Shown here: positions 5,561 to 59,997 of the stretch, piece after piece
How the letters are laid out: every line of letters starts with the position of its first letter
Position numbering within the stretch: position 1 is the stretch's first letter
Assembly (NCBI GenBank): GCA_015680685.1
Contig: MNCI01000456.1
Location: 433,325-497,324 of the forward strand
DNA length: 64,000 nucleotides
Reading direction: 5' to 3'
Source of the DNA: Gnetum montanum
Taxonomy: Eukaryota; Plantae; Gnetophyta
Notes under the pieces: model-generated
Seen by the model: the letters and a program-made list of their open reading frames with translations, nothing else
Told to the model about the DNA's origin: nothing
Database searches by the model: none
Program-made: the position numbers and the translations under genes

Positions 5561-5736
5561 AGAATGCCCTCGTCCTTGCTCTCAACTCTCTCATCAAGGT
5601 CTCTCATTTTACTTATCCTTACCCTTATCTTCATGGTTGGGCTCTTAGTGATTGCGTCTGGATGTGGAAGGAGAGGGTGAATGGTGCAATGAAGGGGAAG
5701 AGGAAGGAGAACCATCACCATGATGATGTTTCCTAC

Positions 5737-7049
5737 TATAATGACAAAAAATGTTGGTTGTTGGAAAGACTAAGAGGATTTCTGTGTACACAGTTTCAAC
5801 CCCGGATCCATGTGAGGGTCTTGCTAGAGAAAACGAATCCAAGGTGCCCTGAATGGTCTTGTCAATCAGACAGGGACTTACTTGGTCAGTAAATTTGTTA
5901 ACGATCATGTAACAAGATGACGATTTAATATGAGAACATAATACCAACTAACGAGAAAATGAGATCTACTCCAAGATTAGATCTTGAAGGCAATGAAAAC
6001 AATGTAAACTATGCAAAATGACTATAAAAATCAATGTAAATAGGATGCAATGAATTGAATTTAGAAAATGCACAATCCCAAGATCTGGGATCTGTCTTAT
6101 GGAAAAATATGATAAATACAATGGGATTTGCAAGAAAACTCCAGTTTGGATGAAGTATCTACCACCAATAAGAAGCTATTTAGAGATTAAACAAGCAAAA
6201 GGCCAATCTACCTTGTTCACTAGCCAATCTAGGCACAAGGGAGTTAGGCTCGAAGTAAAATGTTTGCTAAGTTGCAATTTCTGGCCAAAAGGCTTTTCTC
6301 TATCACCATCGATGCTCTTGCCAACTTTCGTCAATTGCCTAAAATTTTTTTCAACCTCTTTTTTTTTGTTGCCAACTCTTTTTTTTTCGCCAACCCTTTG
6401 AGCATTGTCCACTAGGGTATTTATAGGATTAGGGTTAGGAGAAGAACGTGGTTTAGATGACGTGTGTCCTGGGCCTACAGAATGTCATTGACTTGGCGTG
6501 CTACAGCTGAAGTTTGTGACGCTATGCTATGCTACACTCTGAAGCGTAGCATAGCGTAACCACCCTTTAAAGAAATAGCGTAACCACCCTTTTAAAAAAA
6601 ATTTAACCTTATCTTTCACGTTGAAGGATTTCAAAATATTTGGTGAAAAAAGAATAAATTGTCCTGCGCCTACACTGCGATATGCTGGGAAGCATATTGA
6701 CTGCTACTATTTCAATTTTGTTATCCTTGTTGTTACGACTATATCAACTGTGCTGCTTGCATAACATGGCGTAATACACAAAAATTTAAGGTTTTGAAAC
6801 ATGGTTAACTTGCAAAGTTGAAGTGTTGTCGCTGTGCATCCTTTGTTCTGTTCTATCCTCTTGAAGTCTGCTATGCTGAGCTGCGTAGCGTAGCGTAGTA
6901 GGCCCTTAGCCAAAAAAACTTGCTAAGATGTGCAACTATTTTTAGTGCTTCCATCACTCATATGTCTTGATGCTGCACTTGTGGAAAGCCTTGCCTAAAC
7001 TTCAAGACTTTGCTGAATCATCGAAGTCTCGAAATTTCACGGTGTTTCA
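5737..7049 (-). repeat. 3' LTR of A
   Basis: Direct repeat of 38388-39733; starts TGAAACAC on the minus strand after a purine-rich tract (7050-7065); TATA ctataaatacc near 6417-6427. Confidence 0.92.
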
Positions 7050-8289
7050 ATGGTACTTCTTTGTTGACGTTTGGAGGGCTTGCCCGAGAGATGTCGATGA
7101 AGAATTTGAAATACCACAGAGGTAAAGAAACCAACTCCGTTCGTCTACTGCTGCTCAGATGTTGCCTTGTCAACCCTAGAAATGCGAAGGTTGGGAGCGT
7201 AAGAAGCAGAAGAGGGATTTTACAAGTGTGAGGGAGAGAAGTTCGGGGAAGACTCAAGTGTGAGCAGGATACCTCACAAACATGTTATTAGATAACTTCT
7301 TGCTAGTGTTTTTCATGAGAGGTTACGCTATTACACTGTATATGTGTGGCTTGCTTGGGCGAGTTGTGTTACGCCCATATGGCCTGGACGAGTTGCGTTT
7401 CATCCATTTTGCTTGGCTTTTCCTGCTTCTTCTTCTTCTTCTTCTTTTGAGCTGCGTTACATCTATATAGGATCTTAACCTGCCTACAAACGCATTCCAT
7501 GAGGCGAGTTGCATTACACCAGTTCATGGACATGACAGTTATCATGTGCGAAAGGCTCCCTGTACGTTTACATCTTGTACAAATGGGAGGAGAAAGTAAG
7601 GGTAGTTGCAAGGATAAGAGAGGGAAAAAGTAAGGTAAGGTGTTTGGAGGGGAAAGGTAGGGTCTACACTCCCAAGTAGTTAGGCTAGTCTGAGCAGCTA
7701 CCTCGGAACGCTGTGATGCCTTGCCCTTCTAGTGAATACATCTTTGAACAACGTTATTGTAGCAAGTAACTTGCAAAATGCAACAAAGTGCAAAGAACAA
7801 AAGCAACTGTCCTAACCGCTAGGGAGGCTATTGAAATAAGTGTTGTCCGAAGTGGAAAGGGGAGTGTGGGCCATGGAAAGGGGACCACAGCAAAAAAGAC
7901 AAGGGTCCTTTTGTTGACACCACAGCTCAGGAATTCGCAGTCAACAGCTAGGTCCATCTTATCCATCTAATTGGGCAAAGAGCCAGTCAGATGAATCTGA
8001 GAAGCCAAACCCTAACGACGGCGGTGGCTGGAGGCAACCAAGGCTATGGATGACCATAGTTTCCTTGGAGCTCCAATTGGCGATGCTGACCTCAGGAGTT
8101 GCAATTGCTAAGCAACTGTTGTGATGGTAGCTCCGAGGGGTCAATAGTATGCCCTTCGACATATCTGAGAAATCAGTAAAATGTTGGGGGTAGCGGTGTT
8201 GCGTCTGTTCCAATGCCCTACCCATTCTATCTGATGGGGATGTCATGTAAAAATGGTCAGGCCTACTTGTTCCATGGATGGTTTGTTGG

Positions 8290-8700
8290 CAGATCCCAAT
8301 TTTAGGTCATGGTAGACCGTCATTACTAGTTTTAAGTCCCAATGGACCATGGTCCCAGTTTAAAGTCTAGGCAGATTGAAGTGTGCTAGTTTTATGTCGT
8401 AGCGGACGGTGGAAGAGCTAGTTTATGGTCCTAGAAGACCGTGCTGTGGGTGTCAGTTTTGTGTGGTGAGCCAAGGAGAAGTCTATGCTGGTTTAACATC
8501 TCAGCAGACAGATGCTTACCTTGCTAATTTTACGTTGTGGTAGATGGTTGAAAGCCTTGCCAATTTAATGTCATGGCAGACGCATGCAAAAAATGCAAGT
8601 TTTACACCATAGCAAACATATACAACACTGCTAGTTTTACGTCGTAGCGGACATTTGTTATAGCACTAGTTTTACGTTGTATCGGACAATTGTTACCTTG
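8290..8700 (-). repeat. Degenerate tandem array (ctagttttacgtcgtagcggac-like unit) downstream of A integrase
   Basis: About 10 recurrences of (ct)agttt(t)a..gtc at roughly 32-40 bp spacing. Confidence 0.75.
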
Positions 8701-8720
8701 TGTTCTAGCCAAGATGACGT

Positions 8721-11700
8721 CTAAATGTGGTACTGCTTCAGATACATATAATTCACTGGGTTTGCAAGCTTGTTGTCATTAATGTCTGCTAGCCTGAATG
8801 CTCTATTATCATATGTGTTGACCACCAGGAAAGGGCCTTCCCATCTTACAGAGAATTTGCTCACTGGTTCACGAACAACTTTAAGGACCAAGTCTCCTTT
8901 CTTGATCGTTTGCTGATGCAGGTTGCGATGATGCTTCTGCCTTTGCCTGTCTTGATATTTTTCGATGTAGTTAGGTGTTTAGATGTGATTCTCCTCCATT
9001 GAGTCTAGATCCACGATCCTGGACTCATTGTGTTGAGTCTCATTTATAACCATGGAGAGGACCATCCGTAGTGAGGGAACCTGTAGTTCAAGGGGAAACA
9101 CTACTTCAGATCCGTAGACTAGGCTGTATGGTATCCTACTCGTAGTTGTTCTGCATGTCGTATGATAGGCCCATAGCACGTAGAGGATTTTCTCATGCCA
9201 TCGTTTCTTGCTGTTGCCAAGCATCTTTTTCAGTAAATTGATAACCACCTTGTTTGTTGTTTCCGCTTGACCATTTGCTTGCAGGTAATATGGTGAGGAA
9301 AAATATTGCTTAATACCATGGTTATTGCAGAAAGATTTGGTTTCGGTACTACTAAATTATGGTCCACTGTCAATCATAATAGTTATGGGAAGCCCAAACC
9401 TTGTTACTATGTTGTCCAAGATAAAATGGCAAACTTGTTGAGATGTAGTCTTTTGTAGAGGAATAGCCTTGACCCATTTTGTGAAGTACTCAATGGCAGT
9501 GATAATGAAACTATATCTTGCAAAATACTTAGGCTTGATGGGACCTATGATGTCTAGCTCCCATCGTTGGAATGGCCAAGAGATCTTTGTGGTATGCAAC
9601 TCAATTAGTGACAAGTGTATTAGATTTGCATAATGCTAGCATGTATCACATGTCTTAACTTTGGTAACGTAATCTCATTCCATGTATGGCTAGTAATACC
9701 CTAAGCGTCTGATTTTAGTGGCCATGGCTCGCAGGGCTATGTGTCCTCCACATAGTCCCTCATGGACTTCGCTAACTATCCTTTGCGCTTGGTCATTATT
9801 AACGTAGGTTAACAATACCCCATCAAAGGAGAGCCTACATAGATTGCTGTCTCAAATGATGACGTATTGCTTGGCATGCTTGCGAATTATGTCCTTTTGT
9901 GTAGATGTCAACCTATGCAGTGGTTCACCACGTAAAAGGTAGGTTTTAATGTTGTCGTACCATTCTGGCGTTCCTTCTGCACCTAAAGAAGAGATTTGCA
10001 TCGCTTGGATGACAGGATCTATACATTCCATCATTAAAGCAGGCAAGGTGATGAAAAAATGTGGTGGCACGTTTAAAGCTAGCGTAACTAGTGCATCAAC
10101 TACGGTGTTCTCACTACGGGGCACGTGTTGGACGTCAGTCGTTGTAAATTATTTCAGAAGGTCTTTAGCCATATCTCAATAGGGTTGCAAATGCACGGCT
10201 TTGCAAGCATAGACTTTTGTGATCTGATTGACAATGAGCATTGAATCGCCTCAGATTATCAGTTGTTGAACGTTCAGTTCTCTGGCTGCTAATAGTCCCT
10301 TAAGGAGCCCCTCGTAATCTGCCACATTGTTCATATAGGAAAATGCCAAGCGGTAAGCCAATGGGCGAACATCCTCAGGGGAAAGCGTGATGACGGTGGC
10401 GGCACTACCGCCTTTGGTAATCGAAGCTCCATCAAAGTGTAATGTCACTTTGAGGCCTGTTGATATAGGGCTTAAACTATGTACATGTTTGTTTGGAAAT
10501 TCAAGCTCTATCATCACCTGATCGTTAACAGGTGATGCTACAAGTTGGTCGGCTATCGCTCGGCCTTTTGTTAAAGATTGGCCAACGTAGTGTAAGTCAA
10601 ATTCTACTATGATGGCTTTCCATCGGGCTCTTACTGCTCTTGTATAAATTATTCGTGATGGCCCATAAAATGTTGTTCTTGAAAATTATGTTAACCTGGT
10701 TGAGAAAAAGATAGTTTTTACATTTCTTGAGCATGAAAACCACTGTCAAGCAATTATGCTCTACTTTATTGTACCTCGTTTTGTATGCAAATAGAGCACG
10801 ACTTAAATAATAGATGGGGATTTTTGACCCATCGTATCTCTTTTGACACAACAACACAGTTATGGACATATTTGTACTTGCCAGGTAGATGTAGAAGGGT
10901 TGATCCCTTTATGGTGGGAAAACCGTTGGCAAATGTAACAGCTCTTTCTTTAAGTCATCAAAAGCACGTTGATAGTCCTCGGTCCATTCAAAGTTAATCC
11001 CCTTCTTGAGTAGATGTTGCATGGGATGTAACTTATCTGTCAACTTTGAGATGAACCTTCTGATAAACTATAACCTACCTTGCAACCCATGCAGTTCTTT
11101 GAGGTTTGTAGACGGTGCCAGGTTAACGATGGTCCTAACTTTGTTAGGGTCAACTTGTATGCCAGCCTTCGATACTACAAACCCCAACATCATCTGATTT
11201 TGACTTCGAACACACATTTTCTTGGGTTGAGTCGTAGGTCGTGCCTGAGACATCGTTTAAGGATTAACTCTAAATCCTTAGGGTGATCTACTGAATTCCT
11301 AGATTTAACAACTATGTCGTTTATGTAGTCGTTCAATCTCTCTAAGAGATAATTGCTAAAGATATACGTCATGGCATGTTGATAAGTTGCTCCAACATTT
11401 TTTAGCCTGAAAGGCATCATGGTATAATAGAAAGTTCCCCAGGGATCATGAAAGTTGTAGTCAATTGATGTTCTAGGTTGATACGGATTTGATTATATCT
11501 AAAAAACCCATCCATAAAGGATAGTAAAGCGTGTCTAGCTGTTGTATCGATAAGTTGGTCGATACTCAGTAATGGGGAATTTTCTTTAATCATTACCTGT
11601 TCAAATCATGAAAGTCTATACAGATGTGTATTCCTCCCGTTTTCTTAGAAACGACAACGATGTTTGACACCCAATTTGAGTAATCAACTGCGTGGATGAA

Positions 11701-12169
11701 ACCAGCTTGATATAGCTTAGTGATTTCATCACGCACTACCAACGTAATTTCATGCTTAATCTTCCGTGCTCTCTGTCTAACCACTTCGATACATGGGTCT
11801 AACATGATGTTGTGCTGTATTAGTCATGGGTCTAAACCCAGCATGTCTTCGTACGACCATGCTAACACTGCAATGTTATCTTGGAGAACTTGAGACATAT
11901 CGTTCTACATTTGTTGGTCAAGGAGAGAACTAACCTTCAAAGTTTTTCTTTCTCCTTTGTGTGTAACCATAGAGACCTCAGTGAGGGGATCCTCAGTCAC
12001 ATCACCAGCCTCCAGGTCTAGGGCTTGGGCCAAATGTTCTAGCCAGTCTAGGGATACTTTCGAGGTTGCTATGGTTATGTCACAGGAGGAGGCGTCAGTG
12101 ATTACGCTGTGTAAAGGTTTCCCCGTATGGGCTTGTTAGGGCTAAGGGTGCAAGCAAAGCTTCATCCAT
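8721..12169 (-). pseudogene. pol: pol of A: RT, RNase H, additional archaeal-type RNase H (aRH), integrase
   Basis: Fragments WVSNIVVV..KK.GGI.ICIDF.DLN, MPFRLKNVGATYQ, LHFDGAS...NNVADYEGLL.GL, WELDIIGP, YFTKWVKAIPL, WEGPF; many stops and frameshifts. Confidence 0.93.
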
Positions 12170-13412
12170 TTGCAAACTGACCTGCAAAACCACCAAGAAA
12201 GGAAGTAGTTAAATTATTTTTGTCAGCATGGTGAAATGATACAAGGCTTTAGAGGTATGTGTTGAAAAGGCTGCTAGTTCAAGGTCTTAGCGGACCATTA
12301 CAATATACAGAGTTTGTAAGAAAACAACAAGCGATGCTTCCTAGGTGCTAGCTTAAAGTCCTCGCAAACTATGGCTAAAAGTATAACGTGGTGTGTCTAG
12401 TGTGGAAAAACAGCTAGTTTAGGGTCTTTTCAGACCATAGTTAATGCGACTACATTACGAGACGATAAGCTATGCATTAGTTTAGGATCTTTTTAGGCCA
12501 TAATTAATGCGATATCTACAAGATTAATGGTGTGATCTTTACGCTTCATGTCAAACTGACATTACTGCACTTCGAGAAGGTTCTGCGCTAATCGAGCATG
12601 AAAACAGCAAGTTTTCACCATCATGCTTATAAGTAGATGGTTTGTCCTCGAGGTAAACTGCAAGCATAGTGAAGTTGAGTTAGGCTAAAGCAGAAGGAAA
12701 GCATAAGTTGACGATTTCATAAAGGTTATTCAAGTGTAACAATGGCACCGAAGACTAAACGTAAACACGCCAAGTTGGCCAGGATCGATGAAGTATGGGA
12801 AAGTCTAGGGAAAATTTTGAAGGCGTGAGTCAAAACTCAAGAGGCTACTCCACTCGCCCAGTAAGTCGTTCTTCACCTTCCTCGTGTGATATATGTGTTG
12901 GGTCATTTTCGCTGTCATTGTTTTGTAATTTGTATTTGTTTCGAAAATGTGCACTGTGCTGGGTGTCGATACCTGCCTGTGCTAGTTACGCTATGGGAGT
13001 TTGTAATATTACCCTTATCGCCATTGTCAGAGATAGACCTTGCACTGTCGTAAGGGTTTGGGTGATCATGGGTAATGTTGTACAAACACAACACGTAACT
13101 AGTCAGGAGTCTAGGTGTTGTACCCTTGCATAGCGCAAGCGGGGTTCTATTGTCTTACCTGTAATGATCGTGTTACACTAGGGCAATATGCCATATTACC
13201 TTTATCGCCATTGTCATAGACAGACCTTGCACCATCATAAGGGTTTGGGCGGTTTTGGTAGTGCATCTCTAGCGTAACATGTGATTTTCTGGGAGTCAAG
13301 GTAGCGAGAACCTCAGTGTTGCGTAACAGATTCTTGTGAGCTTTTTTGATTTGTTTTGGTGTTGTTAGCATGTCTAAAGTATTTTCTAATGGTAATGTGT
13401 TTTATTTTAAAG

Positions 13413-16400
13413 GATCACGCTAAAGCCCGTCCTGATCATTCTGGACATTGAGGGCGTTCTATGCTATCGAAATGTCCCTGTGGCCAATGTTCCTCCTCCC
13501 CATGCTCGTGTAGTGGGAGAGACGGTTTGGTTCCGAACGAGCGCATGGGAGTTCCTGCAATTTTTGTTGCGTAACTTTAGTGTAATTTTTTGGTCGCATC
13601 TGTTAGCCAAGACGGCTATCACCATTCTGGAAACGCTGCTGGTTGGGTCAACACAGAGCATCTTAACGTTTCTAGTGGATGGGTCAATCGAGGTTGTAGG
13701 TGAGAGGGATCGTGAACAACGCGTTAAGGGTTTGAGGTGCTTATCCTAGATATAGGAAATGCCTAGGTTTAATTGTTATCATGCCTACAACATGTTGTTC
13801 GTTGCTCATCATCTCATCACCTATTTTCAGAACCTACCTGGCACCATGTATTATGCCGGTGGGTAAGTGCTAACAAGGTGCTATGATTTGTTAATTGCTA
13901 TCTAATTTTGTGTTAGATGTAAACAGTTTTCTGTATTTTGTGACATAGGTTCTTTATTAATGAGGATGGTCTCCAAGGTGATATGAACGTGTTATCCATG
14001 ATCCAAATAACCATAAAGGAATTTACTTCCATCAGCAACATGCGTGTTGGTGTCCTGGGACAACTAGGATTTGAAATCCAACACTAGCCTATCTGGTATG
14101 CCAAATTCCTTTTCAAGTGTAGAGACTCTAGATAGCTAGATAGGGAGTGGACTTTGGACCATCCCATCACCGTTGAAGACGTGCAAGTGAACCTCCCACC
14201 ATTTCCTTTGCCTTTTAGACACAGTAAGTTACACTACGCTGATCAACTATGTGACCCTACAAGATGAAAACAGTGTTTAAGATTTTATGGTTTTGTTGTT
14301 TTATCTAACCTGTTTTTTGTATTTTTATGTTTATAGTTAAACAATCACGAGAGGTTACGGTGATAGCCTTTGGGCGTGACGTAGCCACCATCTTCTTTTA
14401 CTATGGTGATATAAATGAGGCACAACGTTGGCTTTGCCACGAAGCAGCCCCAACTGCCATAACCAATAACCTCTGAGAAGCTAGACTAATAAAGCTATTT
14501 CTAGCTATAACCCCTGATGTCCCAGTAGCCAAAATGTTGGCCCTAGTTGACTCCTTAAGCGAACAAGCCGAGCATTTTCACACACGCATGCGTAACGTGC
14601 ACGTGAGTTTTGATATTAATGCTTAATTGTTCGCTGACTTTTTTGGCGTTCCTTCTAATGGCCTCCCAGTGAGAGAGAAATCCAAAAAGAGTTCTAAACA
14701 TCAGGAGCACATGGAGGAGTGGCTAGGGGCTAAAAAAGAGCAGAAAGGCATCTACACTGAGAAGATCCAACTAGAGGTGGTTGGCACCATTTACCCCCTC
14801 TTCAATGCTCGTGCCTTCCCCAAGCTACTCTCCCAAGGAAAATTCCTTGGAATAGAGCAGGCTTGGATCATGTGGGAGGTTATGGAATAGGAGACATGAT
14901 ATAATTGGGCCAAGTACCTTGCTAAAGGCTTGCAGGCTGAAATGGTCAAGCTTCGCAAGAAGCTTAAGTCTCGTTTCAATGTGCATTTTACCTTCTTCAT
15001 AGCTTGTTTACGGCATTTTGCTAAATTCCTGGTGGTTCACAAGGATAGAGTCTGAGTGCAGCAGGATCATAACTAGATCTCCAAGCCATGTATTTGCTAA
15101 TTCTTCCGCACCGTCCGATCCCAGGATCCTCCTAAAGCTATTGGGGAATCATTTTCAAAAATGATAAGGGATCGGGTGGTGCGTACTTTCCGTGGCCAAG
15201 ATAGCATGGGTGGAGCATCCCCTTCTAACACTGGTAGTTCATCAAAGGGTAAGCACCTGGCAGCAGAGATAGTAGCCTCATCAGTTCAACGAAAAAAGTG
15301 TCATTCAGCTGTGGATTCTCCCAGCCTGACCAGTGAAGAGGGGAGAAAATTACGCATTAAGTTTCACAGGAGCCATCCTCCAGCTGGTAAGTAGAGTGAT
15401 GTGTGATTAGTTTATGTATATTACGCTATGTATATACATCGTTTTATCATGTAGTGCTCGTGGGAAGTGAGTAAAGGTTTGCTAACTGTGATGCGTTCTA
15501 CAGGAAGAGGGAAATATGTGGAGGGACTGACCCCTGAAACAGGGGTCATAGTCTTGCGGTGTGGGGAAGGGGCCCTAGTTTTGGAAAAGGAGACCCCTGT
15601 TGACAACATGGAAAGTACGCAGGCTCCTATGCCTAAAGGGAAGACTAGCGTAGAAGATGCCACGACCCTTTTGAATGGGCTAGAAAGGGAGCAGTGGTTC
15701 GTCATTGGTGGGTTTGACCGCTTGCTTGACCTTTCCTCGATGGGCAATCCTCCCACTATTACCCCTGACGGTTTGCTAGATAGGAGCTTTGCATTATTGT
15801 AGCGTTTCAAATTTTTCCTTTGTCTATTGTGTTATGTTTAACTCGTTTTTTTTACGTAGTAGGCACTTCTGATAACAGTGGCGCACCTTCGTTAGCAACC
15901 CCTACTCAACATTGGGCTGAGGGCCCTGACAAATTTACCTTCATGGAGGGAATTGTTTACCATATGATCGGTCGCTTGGAGCGAATCGATCCTAAGATCA
16001 ATACGTCACTGTTCTTATGCAGGAATTGTTGAAACTATCACATTATGTCATCCTATCGCGTCTAACTGTCATCTTCATATTACAGCATCTTGTCTCAAAT
16101 GGGATCCCAAAGAGCCTATCGATATAGATGCTACCCCTGAATCCTCACCAAAGGTGATCGAAGTGCCACACTGCGTTTACGATGAGATGTGTAAATGTGT
16201 GTTGCACTTGGCCCGCTCTCTATGGGAGAGTCAGAACATCAACAAAGATCTCTGGAAGAGGTTGCAGAAAGCAAAAAAATAGAAAATCGCCCTAGCTACC
16301 AGGGTGGAGGATCTTGAGTCCAAGAACAAATTTCTGCAAGCTCAGGATACCAATGATGGGAATTAGTGGATGGCTATGATTGACTACACCAACTATTGGA

Positions 16401-16906
16401 CGATCATCAGGAACAATGTCTAAGCCAGCTGTGAGCTCATTGAGCAACAAATGCAAATGGATCTCCTAGCCCAGAAGAACCAAGACTAGAAGAACTACAG
16501 CGTGAGGATCAAGGAAAGGGGGTAGGCATAAAAAAATCATAAACACATGTATAAGTAGGAATCTGTTGCCTACCGCTGACATTACAGAGATTCCGGGATT
16601 GAAGCGTGGTCCATCCAGTTGTTCCTTGATGTCATCGGTGCTTCTAGAGCATATGAAAAGTTCTAGGAATAAGTGACAGTGAGTGTCTCCCTTGAGAGAG
16701 AGATGACCCTCCCTGGTGGGGAGATCACTATCCCTTCCTTTTTCCCTGGGCCACCTTGGTGGACTCTTGTGGGAAAGAGGAAGGTCAAGGCTAGAACTAA
16801 TCTAGGAGATGGCGTTTGGACAAAGCTCACTGAGGATGAGATTATGCAACGCCTGTCAGTAGGCCTGGAACAAATTCCTTTCGCGGTCAACATAGGACCA
16901 TCACAG
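13413..16906 (+). pseudogene. Antisense multi-exon accessory gene of A (FCP1/NIF HAD-like domain plus plant-transposon-protein-like domain), 3'-truncated
   Basis: KPVLIILDIEGVL...WFRTSAWEFLQFLLRNFSVIFWSH...YHAYNMLFV; GTAAGT/GTAAGC donors near 13863, 14225, 15387, 16907; homologous to the equivalent regions in B and C. Confidence 0.75.
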
Positions 16907-16938
16907 GTAAGCTATGCAACTGTTGTATTTTTCTTATA

Positions 16939-18232
16939 CACAGTTATGTCCAGCATGACACTAAACTGCGACAGTTATCCACCAGAGTTCACTAAGACTA
17001 TAAACTAGCTTGCCTCTTCATAGTCTGCCACGACTATAAACTAACACTGCATGGTCTACTACAATGATAAACAAGCAATGTCCATAGGATTATGACATGA
17101 AACTAATCCACAACAATCCGCTAAGACTATAAACTGGTGACTCCATCAACAACCTGGTGTTATTTGAAAAGACACGTTGCTGCACCCTACTGTACGTGCT
17201 CACCAAAAAACCTGTAGCCTGATTTGTCATATAGACCTTGGTGAAAATGATGTTATTCAAGATTTTGTTTACCTTGAAATTCCACATGATATCTCCATTC
17301 CATCGGCTATGTTCAGGTTTAAAGTGCTTTAGCTAACTGGATCATTTGTGGTTTTCTTGTCTTCTTAGAGTTGCGTTTGTAGGATGACATGCTTAAGGCG
17401 TTCGTGCACAGATGCACTTCATCATGACGATAGGGTATCACGTTCTTCCTGATGCTCGCAACTAGGTTAATCAATCCACTCATAAGTACATTCCCAACCC
17501 CTGATACATTCCCTATTCCCCATCATTCCCCCTTATCCTATTCAATGACATCCCTTGGATACATCATATCCTACTCACCTGAATCTCTTGATACACTGTT
17601 GCACACTGTGATTCTCAAAGTAGTTGCAACGCAAAACACAATATACAGTACATGATACAAATGAAAGCACATGAGCATGAGCACAACAAAAAAAAAACAA
17701 AAAGTAAAAAAAAAAGAACAAAAGGTCAAAGAGCAAAATGCCTGGAAAAGGTCTTCATGACCCTGTGGTCATCATGGACTAAAGACCATTGGCTCTTCTC
17801 ATACAAGCCCCAAGCGAGAAGGTAATTATCTTGGGAAAAACACTCATGTCTCAAATGATCATATTGGACATCATCACATGGCTTTAGCTATTTACAACAG
17901 GCTCCCTTAAACAAGACACAAGGGTCTCATTTCTCCAAAGAACACATCTCCTATGCCTTGATTCCAAGTCTCCTATATATTGGTTGTTGACAAGGACCAA
18001 AAAGTTGGCTCGTTCACATGAGAGCACTCCTCTCCCATAGTTAAAACAACGACACCCTTAATAAAATTCTAATTTCCCCATTTACAACCAATCCCCTTGC
18101 ATCTTAAACTACGATGACATCCAGCCAGGGGCTAACGGACAATGCTTGGTACTTGGTTGTTCATGGTGTTTTGTAATTCTTTGTCGATGTCTCTCAGGTG
18201 GATTCCTCCAAACGTAAACAAAGAGGGACCAA
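16939..18232 (+). mobile_element. 3'UTR and PPT remnant of an upstream tandem copy of family B
   Basis: Colinear copy of 34357-35682, ending in PPT aaagagggaccaa directly before the LTR. Confidence 0.88.
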
Positions 18233-20051
18233 TGAGACACAACAAAATTTAAGCCTAACACTTTGAAACAGGAACGACTCAAGTAGCAGAAACTTAACTA
18301 AGGCATGGAACTTACACCCAACTTGCTCAAGCCAGCTTGCTCATGTTGTCAAGCTAGCTTGCCCTCAACGTGACCAACCCTGATAGCTTCCAAAATCATG
18401 TCAAAATAGTCCTAATTTGAATGGGCAAAGCCCCCTCTAGGCCCAATGATGACTACTCCAAGATTCAGCATCTAGAACCCAAGATTTCAAGTTAGAATCG
18501 CACGAATCTTGCTACTCACACTAAGGTCACGCTGCCTAGAGTGAGTATAGTGTGAGTACAGCTTGACCAACTTTCAGAGCCATGAAACCAACTCCAAATA
18601 GTCTGAATCTGAGCATGCAGACTCTCCTCAAGCTTCCCTAATGTTCATTGCAAGTCCTGACCTCTAGAACCTTGAAAATTAAGCTCAAAATCACATGATT
18701 TGTTTACTTAAGCCCAGGTCATGCTGGGGTCACGCTAGAGCATGAGCCCAGTGTGACCAAAAAAATAGGTCAAATCAAGTATTTCCAAGCACAATTTTTA
18801 GCATAAAATCAACCCTCAAGGACAGGTAACAATTCTACTTGTTCACAGGTTCTAGAAAATCAAAATTCGGGCATGAAACATGGCATTTTGGCTAGGTCAC
18901 GCTGATAGCGTGAGCCTAGCGTGACCTATCAGAAGTGGATTAAATCAATATAAGAACAGACTCAAATTTAGCATCCAAGCTACCCTGGAGAGCAGGTAGC
19001 AGTTACACTTCAAAGAACAGGCATTAGAGGTCAAGATTCAGCTCAAAATGTGTCACTTCTAGATGGTCACATTGAGGTCATGCTGGTAGCGTGAGCCTAG
19101 CGTGACCACTAGTCATGACCAAGCAAAAGCACTTCCGATGCATACTGAGGACACACCAGGACCAAATCAACTCATGTTGGGAGCCCTGATGAAGCAGAGA
19201 TGCCTTAAATAGCCACCGAACCACTCAAATCGATGCCCTACAATAATCGATTCAAAGGATCATGAAGTTTCAAGTGAGCAGGAGTTAATCCCTCTTGGAA
19301 TTTATTTTAAATTTTCATTGTAAGCTTCATCATCTGTGAGCTTGTCAAGCTCTTACGCTTCTTCTATGAGCGTAAGCTAGCTTGCGTTATATGATACGAT
19401 GCACTTGGTCTAAAACGTAGTCTACCCATGTACACCAGTCACTTAATTCATTTTTCGCAAATCTCACAGCCATTGACCTCATTCGCAAATCCCACTCCCA
19501 AGCCTAGCAAAATGTATAAATACCTTGTTCATTGACATAAAGAGGGTCGACAAAATTTGGAAAAAAGAAAACCAATAACCCTGAGCCCGAACGCACGTGA
19601 TTCCCAGCGCTTGCAAACACTGCACATTGAAGCTTAACGTTTGACTTGCAATCCAAAATCGTGACTATGTTTTGACCAGTGCACATCTTGTTAATTGATA
19701 CAACACAGTTTCATTTTTCCTTCCATTGTGATGTTCTTGTTCATTTTCTGCATTATCCCGTTTTATTGCACATTTCTACAATACATTCTCTGTACGTTTA
19801 CACGTTGTATTCCTCGTTTACTTTTGATTGCATTACGTTCTTCATTTTACATTTCGCAACGATAACCGCAGTGCAGGCCATAGCGTACGCTCGGGGAAGT
19901 CCTTGGTTGATCTGCATGCAGACCATCCAAGGCACTCTGCCTTCGTTTTTTCAGTTTTCCCTCACGTGAAGGCAAGGTCATCTGTGTCTCTCCAGAGATC
20001 TTTCAGCGTACATTTTCTTCCAGCCTTACGCCGATGATTTCGGATGGTACA
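18233..20051 (+). repeat. 5' LTR of B
   Basis: TGAGACAC...GGTACA; repeat of 35683-37473; TATA tgtataaatacc near 19513. Confidence 0.92.
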
Positions 20052-20056
20052 GAAAT

Positions 20057-20071
20057 TGGCACTAGGAGGGC
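20057..20071 (+). promoter_or_regulatory. Primer-binding site of B (degenerate tRNA-Asn type)
   Basis: tggcactaggagggc compared with the intact TGGCGCTAGAAGGAGGG in C. Confidence 0.7.
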
Positions 20072-20558
20072 CTTTCTGTTTACATTTCGTACACACACTA
20101 TCACTTTCCCCATTATCCAGCGTCTAGCGTCCAACGTCTAGCGTTTACCAGTTGCCCATGGCCTAGCGTCCATATGCTGCCTATTGTTCAGCATCCATAC
20201 ACTGCCTATTGTCCAGCATCCATATGCTACACTCTCTTCAGCGTTCATACGTTGCACCCGCTTCAGTGTTCATACGTTGCACCCTCTTAACTGTTCATAC
20301 GTGACCCTCAGCGTCCACACGCTGTGCTTTGCCTCCGAGCGTTACCATCTTCCCTAGGTGCTGTGTTCTGCCTATAGACATTGTGCCTTGTCTTCAGACA
20401 TTCTGCCTTGTCTTTTGACATTGTGCCCTATCTTCAGATGTTGTGCCTTATCCTCAATGTATACACGCTATGCCTTTGATCCCAGTGTGCACACGCTATA
20501 TTTTTAATCATAGACACATTGTACGCTGTACCTCCCTCATAAAAGTGCACACGCTTCC

Positions 20559-20654
20559 TAGCTTGCTCAAGCTAGCTTGCATACACTACTTAGCTTGCTC
20601 AAGCTAGCTTGCATACACTACTTAGCTTGCTCAAGCTAGCTTGCATACGCTACT
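20559..20654 (+). repeat. 3 x 32-bp tandem repeat in the B leader
   Basis: tagcttgctcaagctagcttgcatacactact at 20559, 20591 and 20623. Confidence 0.95.
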
Positions 20655-23600
20655 TACACAAATTCAGCTAGTCAAGCCAATTACACATATGGAATCTTCT
20701 CAGATTAAAGTAACATTGCCCGTCACTGACCTTAATGCCGAAATCTTAAATCCTATGACCACAACTGAACCCATAGTCACTATTGGAGAGATGAACCCTC
20801 AAGGGCCAACTCATCGATCACTTGGACTACAAGGCAAGGAACCCGCCTATACAATTCTCACCCCGAAACAATACAATTTCATCTACATAAAGATCCAAGC
20901 TAACCTGCCCATTGATTGCAGGGAAATGGAAGCAAAACAACATTATGAACTCATCTATAAGGGAGGCTATAACTTTATCCCTTCATCATATGATGTGATA
21001 TCCCTCTCTGAATCCCACCACGAACTCATATTCCAGCTCCTCATGGCAAGGAATCAAACCTTACGGCAACCCACTATAGAGCCTCAAAATGGAGACGAGA
21101 AAGATGACTTCACAGCTCAATTCAAACATGGAGATTCATACCACACTCTCAGTCCTCATACTTATGCAAACCCATTATTCCACCCTTTCACAGGAGAGAC
21201 TATGTCTCTTCATGCATTTACAAGCACCTGTCTCTCAATAGGAAGCACCTAGCGTTATGCCTATTTTCCCTACGACCAACACCTAATTCACTATGCCCAT
21301 CCCTACTATTCCTCTGATTACCACTTTACCACTTTACCCTCCCTCTCACAAGGACAATCCCAACAACTCTCCTCTAAAGCTAATATGGGAGCAACCTTCT
21401 GACCCCAAATAATTGGGATGCCATCCATGATACCTGCTTCTACATCTACCCATTACATACCACAAGTGCAAATCCAAGGAACGCCCTTCACTACTTCAAT
21501 TCAAGAGGTTCAAGGTATTTTCTCACAACTTGTAATTGGCCAGTGGCCCGCACCTATCATTCAACAACATCAACCAGCTCATTACGGCATATCGCCTGTT
21601 ACAAACCCATCCATGAATGTCCCTCAAGTACAACCTTCAATAACCCTACAGTCATCTTTCCCACAAATCACACAACAATCTAGCTAGCACCATGCGCAAT
21701 CTAACCAACCAGCTAGTCCACCTAGTGGTCAAGAATGGGCAGAGGCTAGAAAAATGATGCAAGCATTAACCGATGAGGTAAAGCACCTCAAAATTGCAAA
21801 CACTAAAGAAGTCAAGGTGATGGATTTTTATTAGGATGATCTGATTAGCTCTTCAGTGCCACCATTGAATCTACCAAAAGAAATTTCATTACCATTGTTG
21901 ACCAAGTATAATGGAGAGGTGACATTCTGATTAGAGTGTCTATTACTTCAGGCCTGGCCTCATGCAATCTTGTGTGTGTTCGCCATGTCCTTAACTGGGA
22001 AGGCTTTGGACTGGTATCAATCCTTACCATGTAACTCCATATCCTCTTTGGAGGATTTGTTATATCAATTCGTTACTTGTTTTAAGTATAACCTGAAGCC
22101 TGAAGCCACACTAGATAGTCTAACCCAAATAAAACAAGCACCATTAGAGCCCGTACAAAAGTTCATCCAAAGATGGAGCGCTGCTCTTAATGAACTTCAC
22201 ATGCCTATCCCAGAAACATATTTGCTTACAATCCTCAAGAGTTCCGTGAATGATTTCGTTAAGTCAAAACTCTATTATCTAAATGCTCGTGCTTTGAGTC
22301 AAGCGTTTGTCCAAATCAAAAACATAGAAGAGGTAGCACAGACAAGTCATAACCCAGCTTACCTAACTTTCAAAAGCCAACATACGAAGAAAGATAAAGA
22401 AAAGTCTAAAATAACAGTTGCAACAGTGGCAGAGGCATTTCAACCCAAAAATGCAAGGCAGAAAGGGAAACAACCTGTCACCCCCACTAGTCACGAAAGA
22501 ACCACTTCTACTCCTACACCTAAACCCTCCTCTGCCCAAACTGCTAACATGAGTCATACTCATACTTTCAAATGAAAAGACCCTACCGAGTACACACCCT
22601 TACCTATGAAGCCTTCACAATTACTGGACCAACTTCTAAAGGCTGGGTTGATTCAACACAAGCAAATGTCTCCTGCAGCATCTCAAAGACATGACTGATA
22701 CTGTCAGTTAGTTAAAAATCCAACGTTGGCAACAGCTGATGAACCCCTTGTTCCAAGAGGTTTTAGGTTAGACAGATTCTGTGAGTATCACCAATGATGT
22801 GGGCATCGAACCAATTACTTCTTTACCCTAAAAAAAGACATACAACGTATGATTGATAGAGGTTAGATAGTCTTTGACGAGGCCAACCCAGTAAGACCTC
22901 AAAATCAGACTATGGGGGTCTACAAAGACCCTCTTAACACCAAAGAGCTGCCCTATGTGATTAACACCATCCATGTAGGAAATGAACAAGACATCCCACG
23001 AAGGCCTTTTGTGATTCGTGTGCTTGCTAAAACCGTATCTACACTAACACCTCCACAAGCTCCTTTTTCCACATATACACCTCCTACGCCACAAAAACCA
23101 TTCATCATCCGAGTACACCCAACGGTTGAAATAGCAAACGTGCCATCACAAACCTGGTCTACTCCATTTGTAATCTGAGTTCCACAACACTTCGATGTAC
23201 AACCCCTAACAATTCCTCCATGACCCTCGTGAGAATGCCTCGCCAATAGACTGACCAGGGAACATTTGGCAAAAGAGCATCATGGTCATGAGTTAGGACT
23301 ACCAAAACCCACACCATTGAATGTTGTCCCTATGGTTCCAGTTACTAATCAGCCTAGCACGAGTTGTCAAAACTAGAACTTGGGAGTGTCCAGCATCCCA
23401 AGCTCAACAGCTACAACTAATAACGCGAAAACTCTCCTGCAAGAGATACAAATGTTGGGTCAAATGGATCAAGTCTCAACAGATAAAAACATTCCAAATA
23501 GTAAAGACTTGGCCAACGTCCTGACCCAAGTTACACAGACCCTAAAGCAAAAGAACACCTCTCTGAGCCTATATGACCTAGTAATGACCTCCTTGGTAAA

Positions 23601-24453
23601 TTGGGAAGCTCTAGTGCGTATGTTGACTTTAATCCCCGTTAGCAAAGACCTTCCCGTAAATGAGCCATCCATTTACACTGTGTTGTCTCCACATTAGGAA
23701 TCGAGAGTCACATCTCTTGGATTTCATGCGAATGACATTAAGCAAGATGAAAAAATGAGGGTGGTCACTAATTCCCCTATGTTTATAATGATACAAGTTG
23801 ACCAATTTAAGATACATAGGGTGCATGTCGATGATGGGGCGGCAACAAATGTAATACCCTTCTCGGTCATCGAACGACTAGGCCATGCAGAGCAAATGTA
23901 GCCAAAGACAACATATTTCTTGAAATCTTTCAGTGGTTCTCGTGTCGTGGTAAAAGGCATGGTTACCTTGGATTTCATAGTAGGGAACTGGTTCCCCACA
24001 TCGGTCGAATTTGTAGTTGTTGATGAGATGCATGGATTCAATATGATTCTGGGACAACCTTGGTTAGCTCAACTAAAATCCGTATCCTCACTGATCCATC
24101 AAGAAATTCACCTATCTTACAATAGTGGTGAGATCGTCATACACAAGGATGCAGCAACATCACTTACTTCCTCACACGTAGGAGTGAACCAAGGGTTAGA
24201 CATTGAACTCTCTGAACCTAAGCAAGACACCACTAGTGAAACCTTAGACATTGGCCAATCTCCAACCTACAACCTTCCTAAAATAGAAGAGGCATTAGAA
24301 GATGTAGACGTAGGAGCCATTCCCACGGATGTCCCTTGGTCAGAACTACCCTTTAACGTATCCAGCGAGGGGGATGGCGAGTACAAAACCATGCCTACAC
24401 ATCCCACCCTTCACAAAAAATTGCAAAAACTAAAGAAACAGATCAACAACTAA
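20641..24453 (+). pseudogene. gag: gag-protease of B
   Basis: FAMSLTGKALDWYQSLP.NSI.S..DL...F (retrotransposon gag); FCEYH..CGH.T knuckle; protease RVHVDDGAATNVI...FNMILGQPWL...SLIHQEI. Confidence 0.88.
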
Positions 24454-24970
24454 GACAAACTACCATGCGTCCAAAATGACGTTAAACTACCAAGCATCCG
24501 CAGTGACGTTAAACTAGCCACGGTCAGAAATGGCTAGTTCTTTTAAAATTTATTGAAACAAATACAGTCTCCTCCCTTTCTTTAACAAAGATACAATAGT
24601 CCATCATGACTCTAAATTGATACGCATGGCCCAAAATGGCTTTAAACTATAGCACAGTACATCGTCAGTTTACCGAAACTTCGCTACGTCATTATCACTT
24701 ACATTTTGCAAGTTACAATTTTCATTTATTTTATTCTTACCAAACATGATTCCATTTTGCATTCACGTTCATAAATAAACTTGAAAAAGCAAAAAAAAAT
24801 ATATAAATACGTGTAATGTGAAGTGTTAACGTGGCAATAGGATGATAACATATTACACCATGATCATGTTACATTTGTCTTCACATATTCCAAAAACAAC
24901 AAAATAAGATGAAAGACAAAAAAGAAAAACTAACAAAGAAATTACAAACTGACAAGACTAACAAGCCAAA

Positions 24971-27900
24971 TCATGCACTAGTATTAGGAGGGGGTTGGTC
25001 CCCAAACTCCTCTATGTCATCAACTCCCGTCCCACTAGGGCCAGCCTCACCACCATGTCCCTATAAGGATAAAAATAAAAACAAAAACAAAAAAAACAAA
25101 AAAAATAAGTAAACACAGACAAACAGATTAAAAGCGCAAGATACTAAAAAAGAAATGATGACTAAAAGTAATAAAATAATGTAAGCAATAAGACACTCAT
25201 AGGTGGGGAAGGCCTAAGATTAGCTTCCAGGCACCATAGAATCTCTTCTTCAGGCACGCACGCCTAGTCTTTCTCAAGTCCAAGGTCGATATTAGCCAAG
25301 GTTTTTCCCTTGTCCACTGATGACCAGGAAGGGCACTCAAGAGAAAACATGCTTGTTGAAGCTTCCCCAAAGGTGGTGGTAATGGATCTCTCAGGAGACC
25401 CTTCCACTTCTGTACACTCAACGAACTTCTCATAAGAAGAGCGCAAGCCTAACCCCTCCACGAACATCTCCAACCAATGACGTTCAACTGATTCTTCCTT
25501 CAACCACTTTTTGTATTAGTGCTTATGATCTTTTTGATCCTAGCCCCATTTATGTACCTTGGATGCAAAGGACTTCCAGTCGTGGCATTTCCTATTTAAC
25601 AAATCCATCTAGGTCCTCTATTCGGCCAGATCCCGAATCGCCTGCACCTTGCTATTCAAGCCTACCCAATAACATGCATAGGTGATCTCGAATGTACGCT
25701 AGGTACTATCACCTGCCAATCTAGCAGAGGAAAAATCATAATGGGCTTGCAAGTCATTCCTCTCCTCTGTCACCTTCACCAAACTTTCCTTCAATGATTG
25801 GATTTCAAGCCATAACTATTCAATTGAGCACCTGCAGGTCTAGAGAGACTTAGCATTCGGAACAACACAACCCGAAACTGTATCATAAATTCTTCTTGGG
25901 ATCTACTCAATATCTTTGGGCAATTCCTAGAGACCATCAATATGGGTAGCCTCGGAAGGACTCCATTGAAGCTTCGCACCTATAAGTACAAACATTACAT
26001 ATATGAGCCAACAAGAGATCTCCAATAGATGCAAAAACACAATGAACCTAGGTGCTTAGTATAAAGTACACACCTAACTCAGGATGAGCCTATTGCAGAT
26101 GAGCAACAACATCGTTGACAATGCCAATAACAAAGTCTACTTTCTTGGGCATCTCATGCCAAGGCCTCAATGGATCAGTGGATGTTGAATCTATATGGAA
26201 AGGCACCTCAACTGGGGGCTCTAACTCCGACCCATCTGCCGGAGATGCATGTCCTTCGGGTGCTTCAACATCCATGTCTGATATTAAGAAGAGCCATGAT
26301 AATCAAAATAATTTACAAAGCTAAGAAGTACAAAATGCGGATCAAACTAACAAGACTTACCAAGTGGCCCTTTGCTAGTAAGCTCAGGCGGATCACCAAG
26401 GTGTAGAGACCCATCAAAGAAACCGTCAAAGACACCTTTCTCCTCGCTTGAATGCTTAAGGGCATCTAAATCCTTTGCAAGTGTCACTCCCATGGTATCT
26501 GTTTCATCCTCTCCTCGCAAGATGGGAATAGCCCCAACTGCTCCTTCTCTCGATTCCTCCTCTTCGTCACACCCAGTGATAACCGTTTCAGGCTAACCCA
26601 TTGGAGCTAACTCTTCCCTTTCCCTCTCGGGGGTATCCTCTATTAACACCAAAAAATCTAAAGTTAGCATGACATAATAGGTAAGCACATTTAAGTAAGA
26701 AAATAAATTCAAAAAGCAATAAAAAAATACTTAAAGAAAAAAATAATAAAAATACTTACCCACTCCTGGCAAGATGAATCAAATCTTCTTTGACTTCGAC
26801 GGTCACACCTCAATAACAGGTTCCCTTGAATGCTTAGCCTTTTTCACCTTAGCATTGGCCTTCTTGATAGTCTCCTGAATCAAGTGCTCAGCTATCCTAA
26901 CAGTTGTGTGCAGTTTAGGTGGTTCCAACCCTAAGCTATCACGTGAATGGTGGGAACGACTGGCTGCACCCCCTGTCGTGACAGAGACTGATTCTTCGAT
27001 ACCTTCAAGTGGATCTTGGGATCTAGTGGTGTTAAATAGATGATAGATCTAGGGGCAAGACAACTATGAGAAATCCCTTAACACATAATGGTTATCTCTA
27101 TAGACCACTAAGAACTCGGCAAAACTACGGAGATAGCCCATGAAAAATGCAAAGGTAAAATGGGACTTAGCATCAACATTGGAGCGTAGCCTAATAATCT
27201 CTCCAAGGAGGCCTAATACAAGGAATTGCGCCCAATTGTAGCACATGCCAATCTCCAAGACCACGCGCATAACATGGTGCAGACTCAATCCCAAGACTTC
27301 TTGTTTGGGAAAGAGACTTAGGGAATGCTCATGCTCTAAAGAGCGGGTACAAAAAATTTACCTCTGTCAAGCGAGTATTAGCTTGCATGGAAAAATCCTT
27401 AACACCCTGTGGTATACCTAGCTAGTCTTCAAGTTCCTTGATCACACGGCCTTCTCTAGTTCCTCTATCCACCACCACCTTAGCACCATCCGCTGGTATG
27501 CCAAAGAGATCAGAAAAGAATTTGGCAGTTAGGTGGAAAGACACCTTAACTCCCTGAACTCGTGTAGTAAAATAGGAGACATCATCATTAAAAGAGTCAT
27601 CGATGGAAACCATTTCAGTCACGGGAATGCTAGAAGTCAAGGTAGTAAATAGGTCAATCAAGCTTGCATTTTTAAAATGACTAATAATTTGTTCAGGTGC
27701 CTTCTTGTGCAACCACCATTGTGACTCCTCGGTCTCTCCAAACTTCATAAAGAGAGTGGCCTCAGTACGCCTGGATATGATAGTAACCTCATCAAGGGGA
27801 ACGACCGTTGTAGAAAAGACACAAGAGATGCTAAGTAAAAAATTAAGAATACAATAAGCAATGATGTAACAAAAATGAAAACCAAGCCTGGAACACAACC

Positions 27901-30005: not shown

Positions 30006-30754
30006 CATGAAATCTTGGGTTGGAGAAGGTGTTGAAGTAGATGTTCGCTCTCCTTCACGAATGATAAGCTAGCATGCTTCTTCCCCTTGCGTTGGTTTAT
30101 TTATGCTTTCCCCTTCATCATCATTACTCATGCTCATGCTACTCTGTATCGTGGTCACGCCGCCCTACCCTGCCTTGTTACTCACGCTGTCTGCCTTGCC
30201 CTGTTGCCCAAACCACATACTTCTTGTTGCTCATGCTACCAATCCCTCTAACTCATGCTACCTGCACTTCTTGTTGCTCATGCTGCACTGTATACTGATG
30301 CCACACTCTCTGGTCACGCTCACCACTCATGCACTAACGCTTGCCAAAATAGCTCATGTTTTGCACCTTTTAAATTCCTTCTACTTTTCCTACCCTTTTT
30401 AAACCCACTGTCCAATGTACCTGCTTTATTTTTATGCTTATTCTATTTTTTTTCATCTTTATTTCTCATTCTTCTCTGGTTAATTTAGCCTAAGCATCAA
30501 AATAAAACAAAACAAAAAGACCTCAAAATTCATGAAACCATAAAAACCCACAACATTATTGTTCACACGAAAAATACCAGTGGCCCGGTAAGGCCTAAAA
30601 CTACCATGCGGTCCCGGTATGACATTAAACTACCCCTACATTCCGTAATTTCATCAGAACATAAATTACATGAAGCTAGTTTACATTTAGCAACTCGTTC
30701 ATTAAGAAAATCTCGTTCACGGTGCCCCCGGTTTAAATTGGCAGGAACAAGCAT

Positions 30755-33700: not shown

Positions 33701-34230
33701 AAACAATCATCATGGTACTCAAAACGATATTGAATCAAATCAAAAGACAATGGCATGAGTAGTTAATCTATGCATTATGGGCATACCGAATAACGCATCA
33801 AACGTCCACAAGTAAAACACCATATAGCCTTGTATATGGGTCTGAAGCTATGTTACCTTTAGAGTTATAGGTTCCCTCGTTGCAAATAACGCTCTCTAGC
33901 CTCCTCGATGAAAGCCAGAATAATGAGCTATGCATTGATGACCTTGACTTGATGGAGGAAGAAAGAGTATGAGTGCTTGATCAAATTGAATGGTACTAGA
34001 GACAAAAATGGTGATGTCATCAACATGATCCACATAAGTGGCTGAACAAGGAAGGTGATCTAGTTCTCAAGACAGCCTGCAAACACTTAGACAAATTCTC
34101 AACTAACTAGGAAGGACCTTACTTAGTCACCAAAGCATATGATAACGGGACATTCAAACTCACAAACATGGATGAAAATGAGTTTGCCAATCCTACAAAT
34201 CACGTGTACCTGAAACCATTCTACATTTGA
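30755..34230 (+). pseudogene. pol: pol of B: RT, RNase H, aRH, integrase
   Basis: RT with YVDD; aRH YFDGAC..GSAAVVI...CTNNVAEYEDLL.GL; integrase HHCC, TEYFTKWVEAIPL, TDNGPQF and GPY motifs; stops and frameshifts. Confidence 0.95.
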
Positions 34231-38132: not shown

Positions 38133-38364
38133 TCTCTACGTAGTTAGAAGGTAATGCTAATGGGGATAAAGATCACAAAGGCAAAACTAGACTAAAGGCA
38201 AATGTGGGCTTTCTGTCCAGCTGGATTCTAGAGGAATCGTTGGAGTGACTGATCTATACCACACGATCACGTAAAAAACCATGGAGGTATCACGTTTACG
38301 CTAGTTGATAATGGGTACAGACAACTTACAAGACTACCCATGAAACCCAGATCAAAGGTTCAAG

Positions 38365-38381
38365 CCCTTCTTCTAGTGCTA
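38365..38381 (-). promoter_or_regulatory. PBS of A (degenerate tRNA-Asn type)
   Basis: cccttcttctagtgcta adjacent to the LTR. Confidence 0.75.
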
Positions 38382-38387
38382 GAAAAC

Positions 38388-40520: not shown

Positions 40521-40521
40521 A

Positions 40522-59991: not shown

Positions 59992-59997
59992 ATTTAC

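Follow-up and report, generated by a model that had tools for sequence, protein, structure and literature searches.

Three nested Ty3/Gypsy elements in the window (the whole 64,000-nucleotide stretch of DNA that was analysed) each carry, in the gap between PR and RT and on the opposite strand, a gene whose second exon very probably encodes an FCP1/NIF domain of the HAD fold. Most of the catalytic residues of this domain are lost and it bears the mark of purifying selection, and it is therefore likely to be a non-enzymatic binding module. We put the probability of the whole account, in which a dead FCP1/NIF domain kept under selection would serve as a binding module in the accessory protein of the element, at about one half. 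An earlier note on this DNA had already taken the domain for a captured, dead phosphatase fold; the fold, the loss of motifs and the selection all uphold this view, and the dead state itself is a prediction from sequence. For most accessory genes in plant LTR elements neither origin nor function is known, and here is a case in which selection preserved such a gene in a lineage of high copy number and in which its domain can be traced to a cellular enzyme family, of which it is now a probable pseudoenzyme.

By self-comparison, Pfam and tblastn the window was found to be plant-like DNA packed with nested Ty3/Gypsy elements (Table 1). Elements A, B and C share the order RT-RH-aRH-INT, a PBS was seen in all three, and Gag-PR is retained in B and C. 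Because their Pol contains an archaeal-type extra RNase H (aRH), matched by RVT_3 at E 6e-17 in B and more weakly in A and C, we assign them to the Tat clade of Ty3/Gypsy. Their layout is Ogre-like, with the aRH between RH and INT and the RT split off from Gag-PR, by the features given in Additional file 5 of PMC6317226 (in excerpt). The RT had its best match in a Cryptomeria protein (56%), and the RTs of B and C grouped with two Cryptomeria proteins and one further row (five rows, 97%, FastTree) in a tree without labelled reference elements. The LTR pairs show a K2P divergence of 0.11-0.14, no target duplication was seen at the ends of element B, and copies A, B and C are old, dead and broken fossils. 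Long ORFs at 4679-5900, where there is a run of N, were rejected as an artefact. At least one fifth of the words of the copy B accessory region was contained in eight of 22 listed sequencing runs, which came from four organisms. From a first DNA run, of one organism, 75,961 contigs aligned to 12000-31000, and from a second, of another organism, 3,273 contigs aligned to 13330-14060, in both cases mostly 80-95% alike; contig counts of this size at such likeness indicate high-copy families.

Table 1. Elements A, B and C and the exons of the antisense gene that each carries, in positions of the window
Feature	Position	Strand	Details
Element A	5735..39733	-	split by element B; LTR parts 38386-39733 and 5735-7049
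Element A, inner parts	PBS near 38362-38382; pol remnant ~12042-8724		gag-PR mostly gone
Element B	16939..37474	+	LTRs ~16939-20052 and 34357-37474; PBS ~20057
Element B, coding parts	Gag-PR ~20660-24450; RT-RH-aRH-INT ~30960-34227
Element C	41503..62108	-	LTRs ~41503-44922 and 59958-62108 (truncated)
Element C, coding parts	Gag-PR ~58140-55516; RT-RH-aRH-INT ~48340-45105
Copy A, exon 1	12742..12860	+	candidate first coding exon, predicted from sequence only; 119 nt, ATG, 39 codons, one stop, phase-2 donor GTAAGT
Copy A, exon 2	13413..13862	+	450 nt; NIF/FCP1-like core, HMM positions 4-149 of 197; two in-frame TAG stops; borders aag/G at 13413 and GG/GTAAGT after 13862, phase 2 at both ends
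Copy B, exon 2	28262..28706	-	445 nt, shorter by two codons; phase 2 at both ends; two stops and one frameshift
Copy C, exon 2	50942..51391	+	450 nt; phase as in A, one stop
Copy A, exon 3	13949..14223	+
Copy B, exon 3	28178-27907	-
Copy C, exon 3	51475-51746	+
Copy A, exon 4 (long)	14337..15386	+	conserved domain, then variable tail
Copy B, exon 4 (long)	27807-26760	-	conserved domain, then variable tail
Copy C, exon 4 (long)	51837-52818	+	conserved domain, then variable tail
Copy A, exons 5-7	15504..16906	+	gene interrupted here by element B; boundaries of exons 5-6 unsure
Copy B gene, exons 2-8	24971..28706	-	exons 5-8: 26639-26361, 26277-26074, 25979 to ~25196, 25060-24971; end of exon 7 unsure
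Copy C gene, exons 2-8	50942..54613	+	exons 5-8: 52961-53239, 53323-53525, 53620 to ~54400, 54521-54613; end of exon 7 unsure

The gene occupies a PR-RT gap that measures ~6.3 kb in B, and was modelled by translated comparison of the copies together with the reading of splice sites, all three copies being covered in full. As modelled, it is an intron-rich accessory gene of 7-8 exons and ~1,050-1,100 codons, antisense to the element. Seven exons are common to the copies; their acceptors, donors and phases agree between B and C, and the splice sites and phases of A agree with both at exons 2-4 and at the start of exon 7. The peptides that the earlier note had quoted from A, B and C were all recovered where it had placed them, that of A forming a clean AG..GT exon. 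Its view that the protein begins with the domain had to be abandoned, since exon 2 starts in phase 2 and so is not the first coding exon, and in A it is preceded by the short candidate exon 1. This candidate exon is basic (Lys/Arg 9/39), and no counterpart of it was found in B or C, nor was a promoter identified in either of these copies. The GC content is 28-30% in the short introns and 42-47% in exon 2. Every copy is broken, with frameshifts in B and C and with 22, 18 and 6 in-frame stops in 900, 878 and 855 codons of A, B and C, respectively, compared with 34-95 in the other frames. Three RNA runs yielded 18, 1 and 2 reads on 13330-14060, none of them at least 95% alike. No RNA joint at a predicted intron was found in six RNA runs, the reads of which are few, partial and diverged and hence uninformative on expression; among the 15 joints listed for 12000-31000, from a longer list with 102 more, none lay at a predicted intron.

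Comparison of the exons with Pfam NIF (PF03031), which the earlier note had proposed as a check, returned this family as the sole match on each exon 2 (19.2 and 18.4 bits in A, 21.6 bits for part of B and 13.9 bits in C), although every one of these pieces of single broken exons scored below the NIF gathering score of 21.8 bits. A two-copy query profile made from A and the first part of B, with C left out, matched 160 proteins at E<=0.001 among 1.84 billion (best E 2e-14, one at E<=1e-10). Of 34 proteins scanned with Pfam among the best 150 matches, 33 had NIF above the cut-off and one was a repeat artefact. An HMM of the relatives, comprising 152 domains from 143 of the best 150 matches, scored 65.8, 59.3 and 49.7 bits on A, B and C in the six-frame window, where the next best score was 2.9 bits; C is an independent test, as A and B had picked the members of this HMM. 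Shuffles of the exon pieces, 500 for each, reached a top score of 5.9 bits, and profile-profile comparison with hhalign gave a probability of 99.6% over 141 columns, so that the NIF/FCP1 (HAD) homology claimed in the earlier note holds beyond what shuffled sequence produces. The matched span covers positions 4-149 of 197, from motif I to just beyond the N-P motif. Neither the HMM nor hhalign (0.8%) detected the remaining ~48 positions of the domain of the relatives in exon 3, which was accordingly rejected as the piece that completes the NIF fold; the fold may lack its end, or sequence that has diverged may supply it. A word-seeded protein search with exon 2, restricted to longer proteins, gave no match, no related loci were found in metagenome or viral contigs, and no locus of a host gene was found with which intron positions could be compared.

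Structure prediction pointed the same way. An AlphaFold2 model of the domain (pLDDT 88) had CTDNEP1, SCP1-3 and Tim50 as its top solved folds in Foldseek (E 6e-6 to 4e-4, TM up to 0.69), an agreement that bears out another check named in the earlier note and is partly circular, since 64 NIF relatives were fed into the prediction through the alignment. Among viral models, Foldseek found giant-virus CTD-like phosphatases. When copy A or the two-copy profile was compared by sequence with the solved structures, there were 0 matches at E<=1; a profile of the relatives together with copy A had UBLCP1 as its best match (E 2e-17). SCP1-3, CTDNEP1, UBLCP1 and FCP1 thus have a fold like that of the element model, at 12-19% identity in structural alignments; they differ from the element in that the latter lacks DxDx(T/V) and has no BRCT or ubiquitin-like domain by Pfam on the scanned pieces of exons 1-4 and 7.

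The named relatives come from Sphagnum, Selaginella, Asteraceae, Euphorbia, Stephania and chytrids and are called hypothetical or 'FCP1 domain' proteins, one bearing the name 'FCP1 homology domain-containing protein C1271.03c-like'. Judged by sequence likeness, the closest kin are this uncharacterised C1271.03c-like subfamily, which gives the best matches across motifs I-IV and the N-P motif and has members in plants, in fungi and protists, and probably in giant viruses as well. Among the 152 relatives' domains, 148 begin motif I with Asp, and at the +2 position 138 carry Asn and 7 carry Asp; the motif III Lys is present in 151, and the two motif IV Asp residues in 148 and 132. The C1271.03c-like proteins thus keep D-x-N-G, Lys and DD, whereas the element copies do not (the Gly of the DxNG signature is kept and the Asn replaced in 3/3), and their C-terminal ~48 positions have no detected equivalent in the element. 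The prevalence of DxN in the relatives makes it likely that the donor family was already without DxD, and that it was not a known CTD phosphatase. The link to the Pol II CTD drawn in the earlier note is weakened by this kinship with DxN proteins, only 7 of 152 domains having DxD, and by the missing BRCT and ubiquitin-like domains; attention is drawn instead to an unstudied DxN subfamily of FCP1-like proteins. A phylogeny with FCP1-like relatives, also suggested earlier, placed the three copies in a single clade (SH-aLRT 99) carried by a long branch, which indicates one capture; no reliable sister emerged, this branch pairing with a second long one (81% support) in a tree without canonical DxD families.

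The canonical motif I, DxDx(T/V), and its role are described in PMC8346121 (in excerpt). In the copies it reads DIEG (A), ELVG (B) and ELMG (C), so that the first position stays acidic (D/E/E) and the acid/base position is E/V/M. The Ser of motif II is kept in a W-S-H that is invariant in 3/3 copies, the Lys of motif III is replaced throughout (R/R/Y), and the DD of motif IV has become AH in A, AC in B and AF in C; the earlier note had read DxE in A, ExV/ExM in B and C, and no motif IV DD, exactly as observed. The motif III Lys holds the phosphate in this fold, and the motif IV Asp pair binds metal. At position 13451 a DNA run of a related species had T in 2442.1/2442.1 depth (79 contigs), which codes a hydrophobic residue as in B, and the Glu of the copy A 'DxE' looks private to A. 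Synonymous sites are saturated between A and B/C (A-C pS 0.83), and the Asp-to-Ala change in motif IV that is common to the copies must therefore predate their decay. We predict with considerable confidence that the domain is catalytically dead, and the loss of catalytic motifs across diverged copies, taken with purifying selection, makes it a likely pseudophosphatase.

Evidence of that selection comes from codon comparisons. Between B and C, pN/pS was 0.34 for exon 2 (95% bootstrap 0.24-0.47; 146 codons), 0.27-0.35 for exons 4 and 7 and 0.55 for exon 3, against 0.24 for RT-RH, 0.35 for aRH-INT and 0.86 and 1.00 for a shifted-frame control, with the proviso that protein-guided alignment can somewhat depress pN/pS. 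Compared with A, the values for exon 2 were 0.49-0.53 and those for pol 0.26-0.34, and A-B identity was 37% for exon 2 and 54-59% for pol. The NIF domain thus changes faster than pol, yet is constrained.

For the remainder of the protein the searches were largely negative. Exon 4 had no Pfam match at E<=10 to PF10536, PF04195, PF20167 or PF24924, and hhalign against seven DUF7745 stretches gave 0.1%, in a comparison of three copies whose sensitivity is lowered by stops; with neither Pfam nor hhalign in support, the idea of exon 4 as a PMD/Transposase_32-like domain was rejected. No TRP28 match was found in the accessory protein, and a word search with exon 4 gave no homologs. Of two stop-free exon 4 stretches submitted to the ESM Atlas, one returned nothing and the other a single unusable lead at 0.76, and the exon 4 model (pLDDT 38) was unusable. 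Exon 7 is helical and probably forms a coiled coil, as suggested by a weak Pfam match (E 0.37) and by reading by eye.

These observations can be joined in the following account, which is the one we favour. A C1271.03c-like (DxN) gene would have been captured a single time, before the family of A parted from that of B and C, after which catalysis would have been lost and the fold reused as a module that binds proteins or peptides. In Ogre elements, among them those of pea and Medicago, the PR-RT region is spliced out (PMC6317226, in excerpt), and the gene in its entirety would lie in that region; it would be transcribed from a promoter of its own at the end of the gap nearer to RT. Its introns would outlast reverse transcription because the gene is antisense to the genomic RNA, as we infer from the action of splicing on one strand. 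The product, of ~1,050-1,100 residues, would consist of a basic N-terminus, the dead HAD fold, a helical domain of no known family and a probable coiled coil. It would be a trans-acting nuclear regulator that promoted multiplication of the element, comparable to the eORF proteins of other Tat elements, in which a domain is likewise joined to a coiled coil. A partner may be bound in its former active-site groove. Fungal Tim50 offers a parallel, its core having an FCP1-type fold with an imperfect motif, no activity and a peptide-binding groove (PMC8346121, in excerpt). It is a structural match of the element model (E 2e-4), but as a host-encoded mitochondrial membrane receptor it serves only as an analogy for the way in which an inactive fold of this type may function. 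The gene also offers a handle for finding such a partner.

Along the lines of the earlier note, the domain might instead be a decoy: by binding the Pol II CTD in its phosphorylated form, or whatever the host C1271.03c-like protein acts on or partners with, it would shield transcription of the element from silencing. We think this unlikely: its fold is that of the SCP/FCP1 CTD phosphatases, the motif II Ser is retained and the candidate first exon of copy A is basic, but the closest kin are DxN proteins of unknown substrate and not CTD phosphatases, Pfam and hhalign found no PMD in the protein, and the pocket has been rebuilt, with the motif III Lys turned to Arg in two copies and to Tyr in one. 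Substrate-trap forms of SCP1, on the other hand, retain the pocket. A further point in favour of a decoy is that host PMD proteins partner a phosphatase-family protein in TE silencing (PMC7156037, in excerpt). A wider conjecture would place the elements in a so far undescribed sublineage of Tat, carried by plants of non-angiosperm type, with a spliced 8-exon antisense gene in a PR-RT intron, whose product (a rebuilt pseudophosphatase, a helical domain and a coiled coil) is an anti-silencing or transcription-shielding decoy mirroring the host PMD-PP7L silencing modules; we hold this to be doubtful. PP7L is itself inactive. It is distinctly improbable, to our mind, that catalysis persists in an altered form, relying on Asp/Glu in motif I, on Ser in motif II and on the new, conserved His beside it. 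An acidic motif I residue is found in 3/3 copies (D/E/E) with W-S-H invariant, and the very strict retention of D, K and DD in the DxN relatives suggests that these are unusual enzymes; both motif IV Asp residues and the motif III Lys are nevertheless gone from the element copies, and the replacements differ between them (H/C/F; R/R/Y).

Whether the gene is of use to the element at all is questioned by a reading in which a fragment of a DNA transposon or host gene was inserted into the PR-RT gap and merely copied along. Seven introns are odd in a retroelement gene and would suit an origin at the DNA level, exon 4 resembles transposon-linked plant domains by eye, and nested insertions are common in the window. 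The gene has, however, an identical place and orientation in two families with saturated synonymous sites, a pol-like pN/pS in exons 2, 4 and 7, and a B-C divergence (61-80% identity in the same exons) that tracks those of RT (76%) and INT (67%); no transposase was matched by Pfam, and among 25 of 40 inverted-repeat pairs listed none flanks the gene. We regard such a passenger as rather improbable. Very improbable is the remaining possibility, that antisense transcription over the gap tunes splicing or the Gag:Pol ratio and that the protein is secondary. The region that the gene occupies does serve in Ogre as an intron with partial splicing (PMC6317226, in excerpt), and the gap of ~6.3 kb compares with an Ogre average of 274 bp, but the strand signal of the RNA reads is thin and mixed, and purifying selection at the codon level across ~900 codons requires that the protein had a function.

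Antisense accessory genes of Tat elements are already known, and what appears to be new here is the NIF fold, the place between PR and RT and the introns. The eORFs of other Tat elements, PMD-CC in TatIII/Ogre and TRP28-CC (Tr28-CC) in Retand, Grande and RIRE2, are likewise antisense and selected, with a probable C-terminal coiled coil (PMC4408406, in excerpt). They are described as plain ORFs situated ahead of gag or else in the interval from pol to the 3' LTR (excerpts of PMC4408406, PMC7264820, PMC11963269 and PMC6317226), whereas the present gene, with its NIF fold and about seven introns, is placed between PR and RT and gave no PMD, TRP28 or DUF7745 match. No NIF/HAD domain in an LTR element and no spliced antisense PR-RT gene was found in the literature covered, of which subscription papers are mostly no part and whose supplements could hold a case. 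In the excerpts used, Additional file 4 of PMC6317226 gives 12 eORF domains without NIF, section 12 of PMC9289625 names nine of 15 domains, none of them NIF, and a term search of PMC5348765 had no match. A spliced PR-RT gene would escape such surveys because they sought single long ORFs upstream of gag or downstream of pol, with a minimum of 250 codons for an eORF in PMC6317226 (in excerpt), and the present gene points to an intron-rich class of retroelement genes overlooked by annotation pipelines. The bar in Additional file 4 was E<=1e-10 in at least five elements, and exon 2 would miss it. A host enzyme fold has likewise become fixed in other large plant Gypsy lineages, as the Ogre-related AlkB/2-ODD of orchids and the LOG-like YgdH of Athila; the orchid AlkB is active and keeps its cofactor residues (PMC9289625, in excerpt), whereas the NIF domain of the present elements has lost its catalytic residues.

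The RT of element B, one of three broken Tat-clade Ty3/Gypsy elements (A, B and C), lies within positions 31052–33762 of the window and clusters with conifer Tat proteins in the tree. The domains in the same interval run from RNase H (RH) through the extra archaeal-type RNase H (aRH) to integrase (INT), an order that PMC6317226 gives for angiosperm Ogre/Retand elements. This pairing of a conifer-type RT grouping with an angiosperm Ogre/Retand-type aRH order possibly marks a Tat branch unclassified so far. Ahead of the RT, B and C carry a conserved open stretch that may be the site of a splice acceptor or of the start of the Pol frame. Short tandem arrays (24–52 bp) lie on both flanks of the antisense accessory gene in B and C, and those on the RT side coincide with the expected place of its putative promoter.

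Features located in the window
Feature	Element	Positions	Remark
Tandem array	B	29236-29674	RT side of antisense gene
Tandem array	B	24457-24516	opposite flank of antisense gene
Tandem array	C	49614-50171	RT side of antisense gene
Tandem array	C	54998-55150	opposite flank of antisense gene
Conserved open stretch, ~75 codons	B	30736-30960	5′ of RT; sequence reading
Conserved open stretch, ~75 codons	C	48580-48340	5′ of RT; sequence reading
Further repeat family, pieces 67-95% alike		79-1439; 39798-41498; 62134-64000	window self-comparison

The K2P distances between paired LTRs were 0.143, 0.113 and 0.116 for A, B and C, respectively, with transitions predominating, and the three insertions are therefore old. 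No target duplication was seen at the ends of B (positions 16900–16945 and 37475–38386), and most of gag-PR is missing from A where B sits. Element B may have formed by recombination between two insertions, or its arrival may have been accompanied by a deletion.

Two unnamed Logan proteins, P0128 and P0136, exhibited degenerate NIF (PF03031) motifs, with motif I as E-x-E and D-x-A, and are perhaps further dead copies of the fold; P0128, the only one of the two placed in the tree, did not group with the three NIF copies of the window. A run of N at about positions 4835–5560 produced spurious long ORFs.
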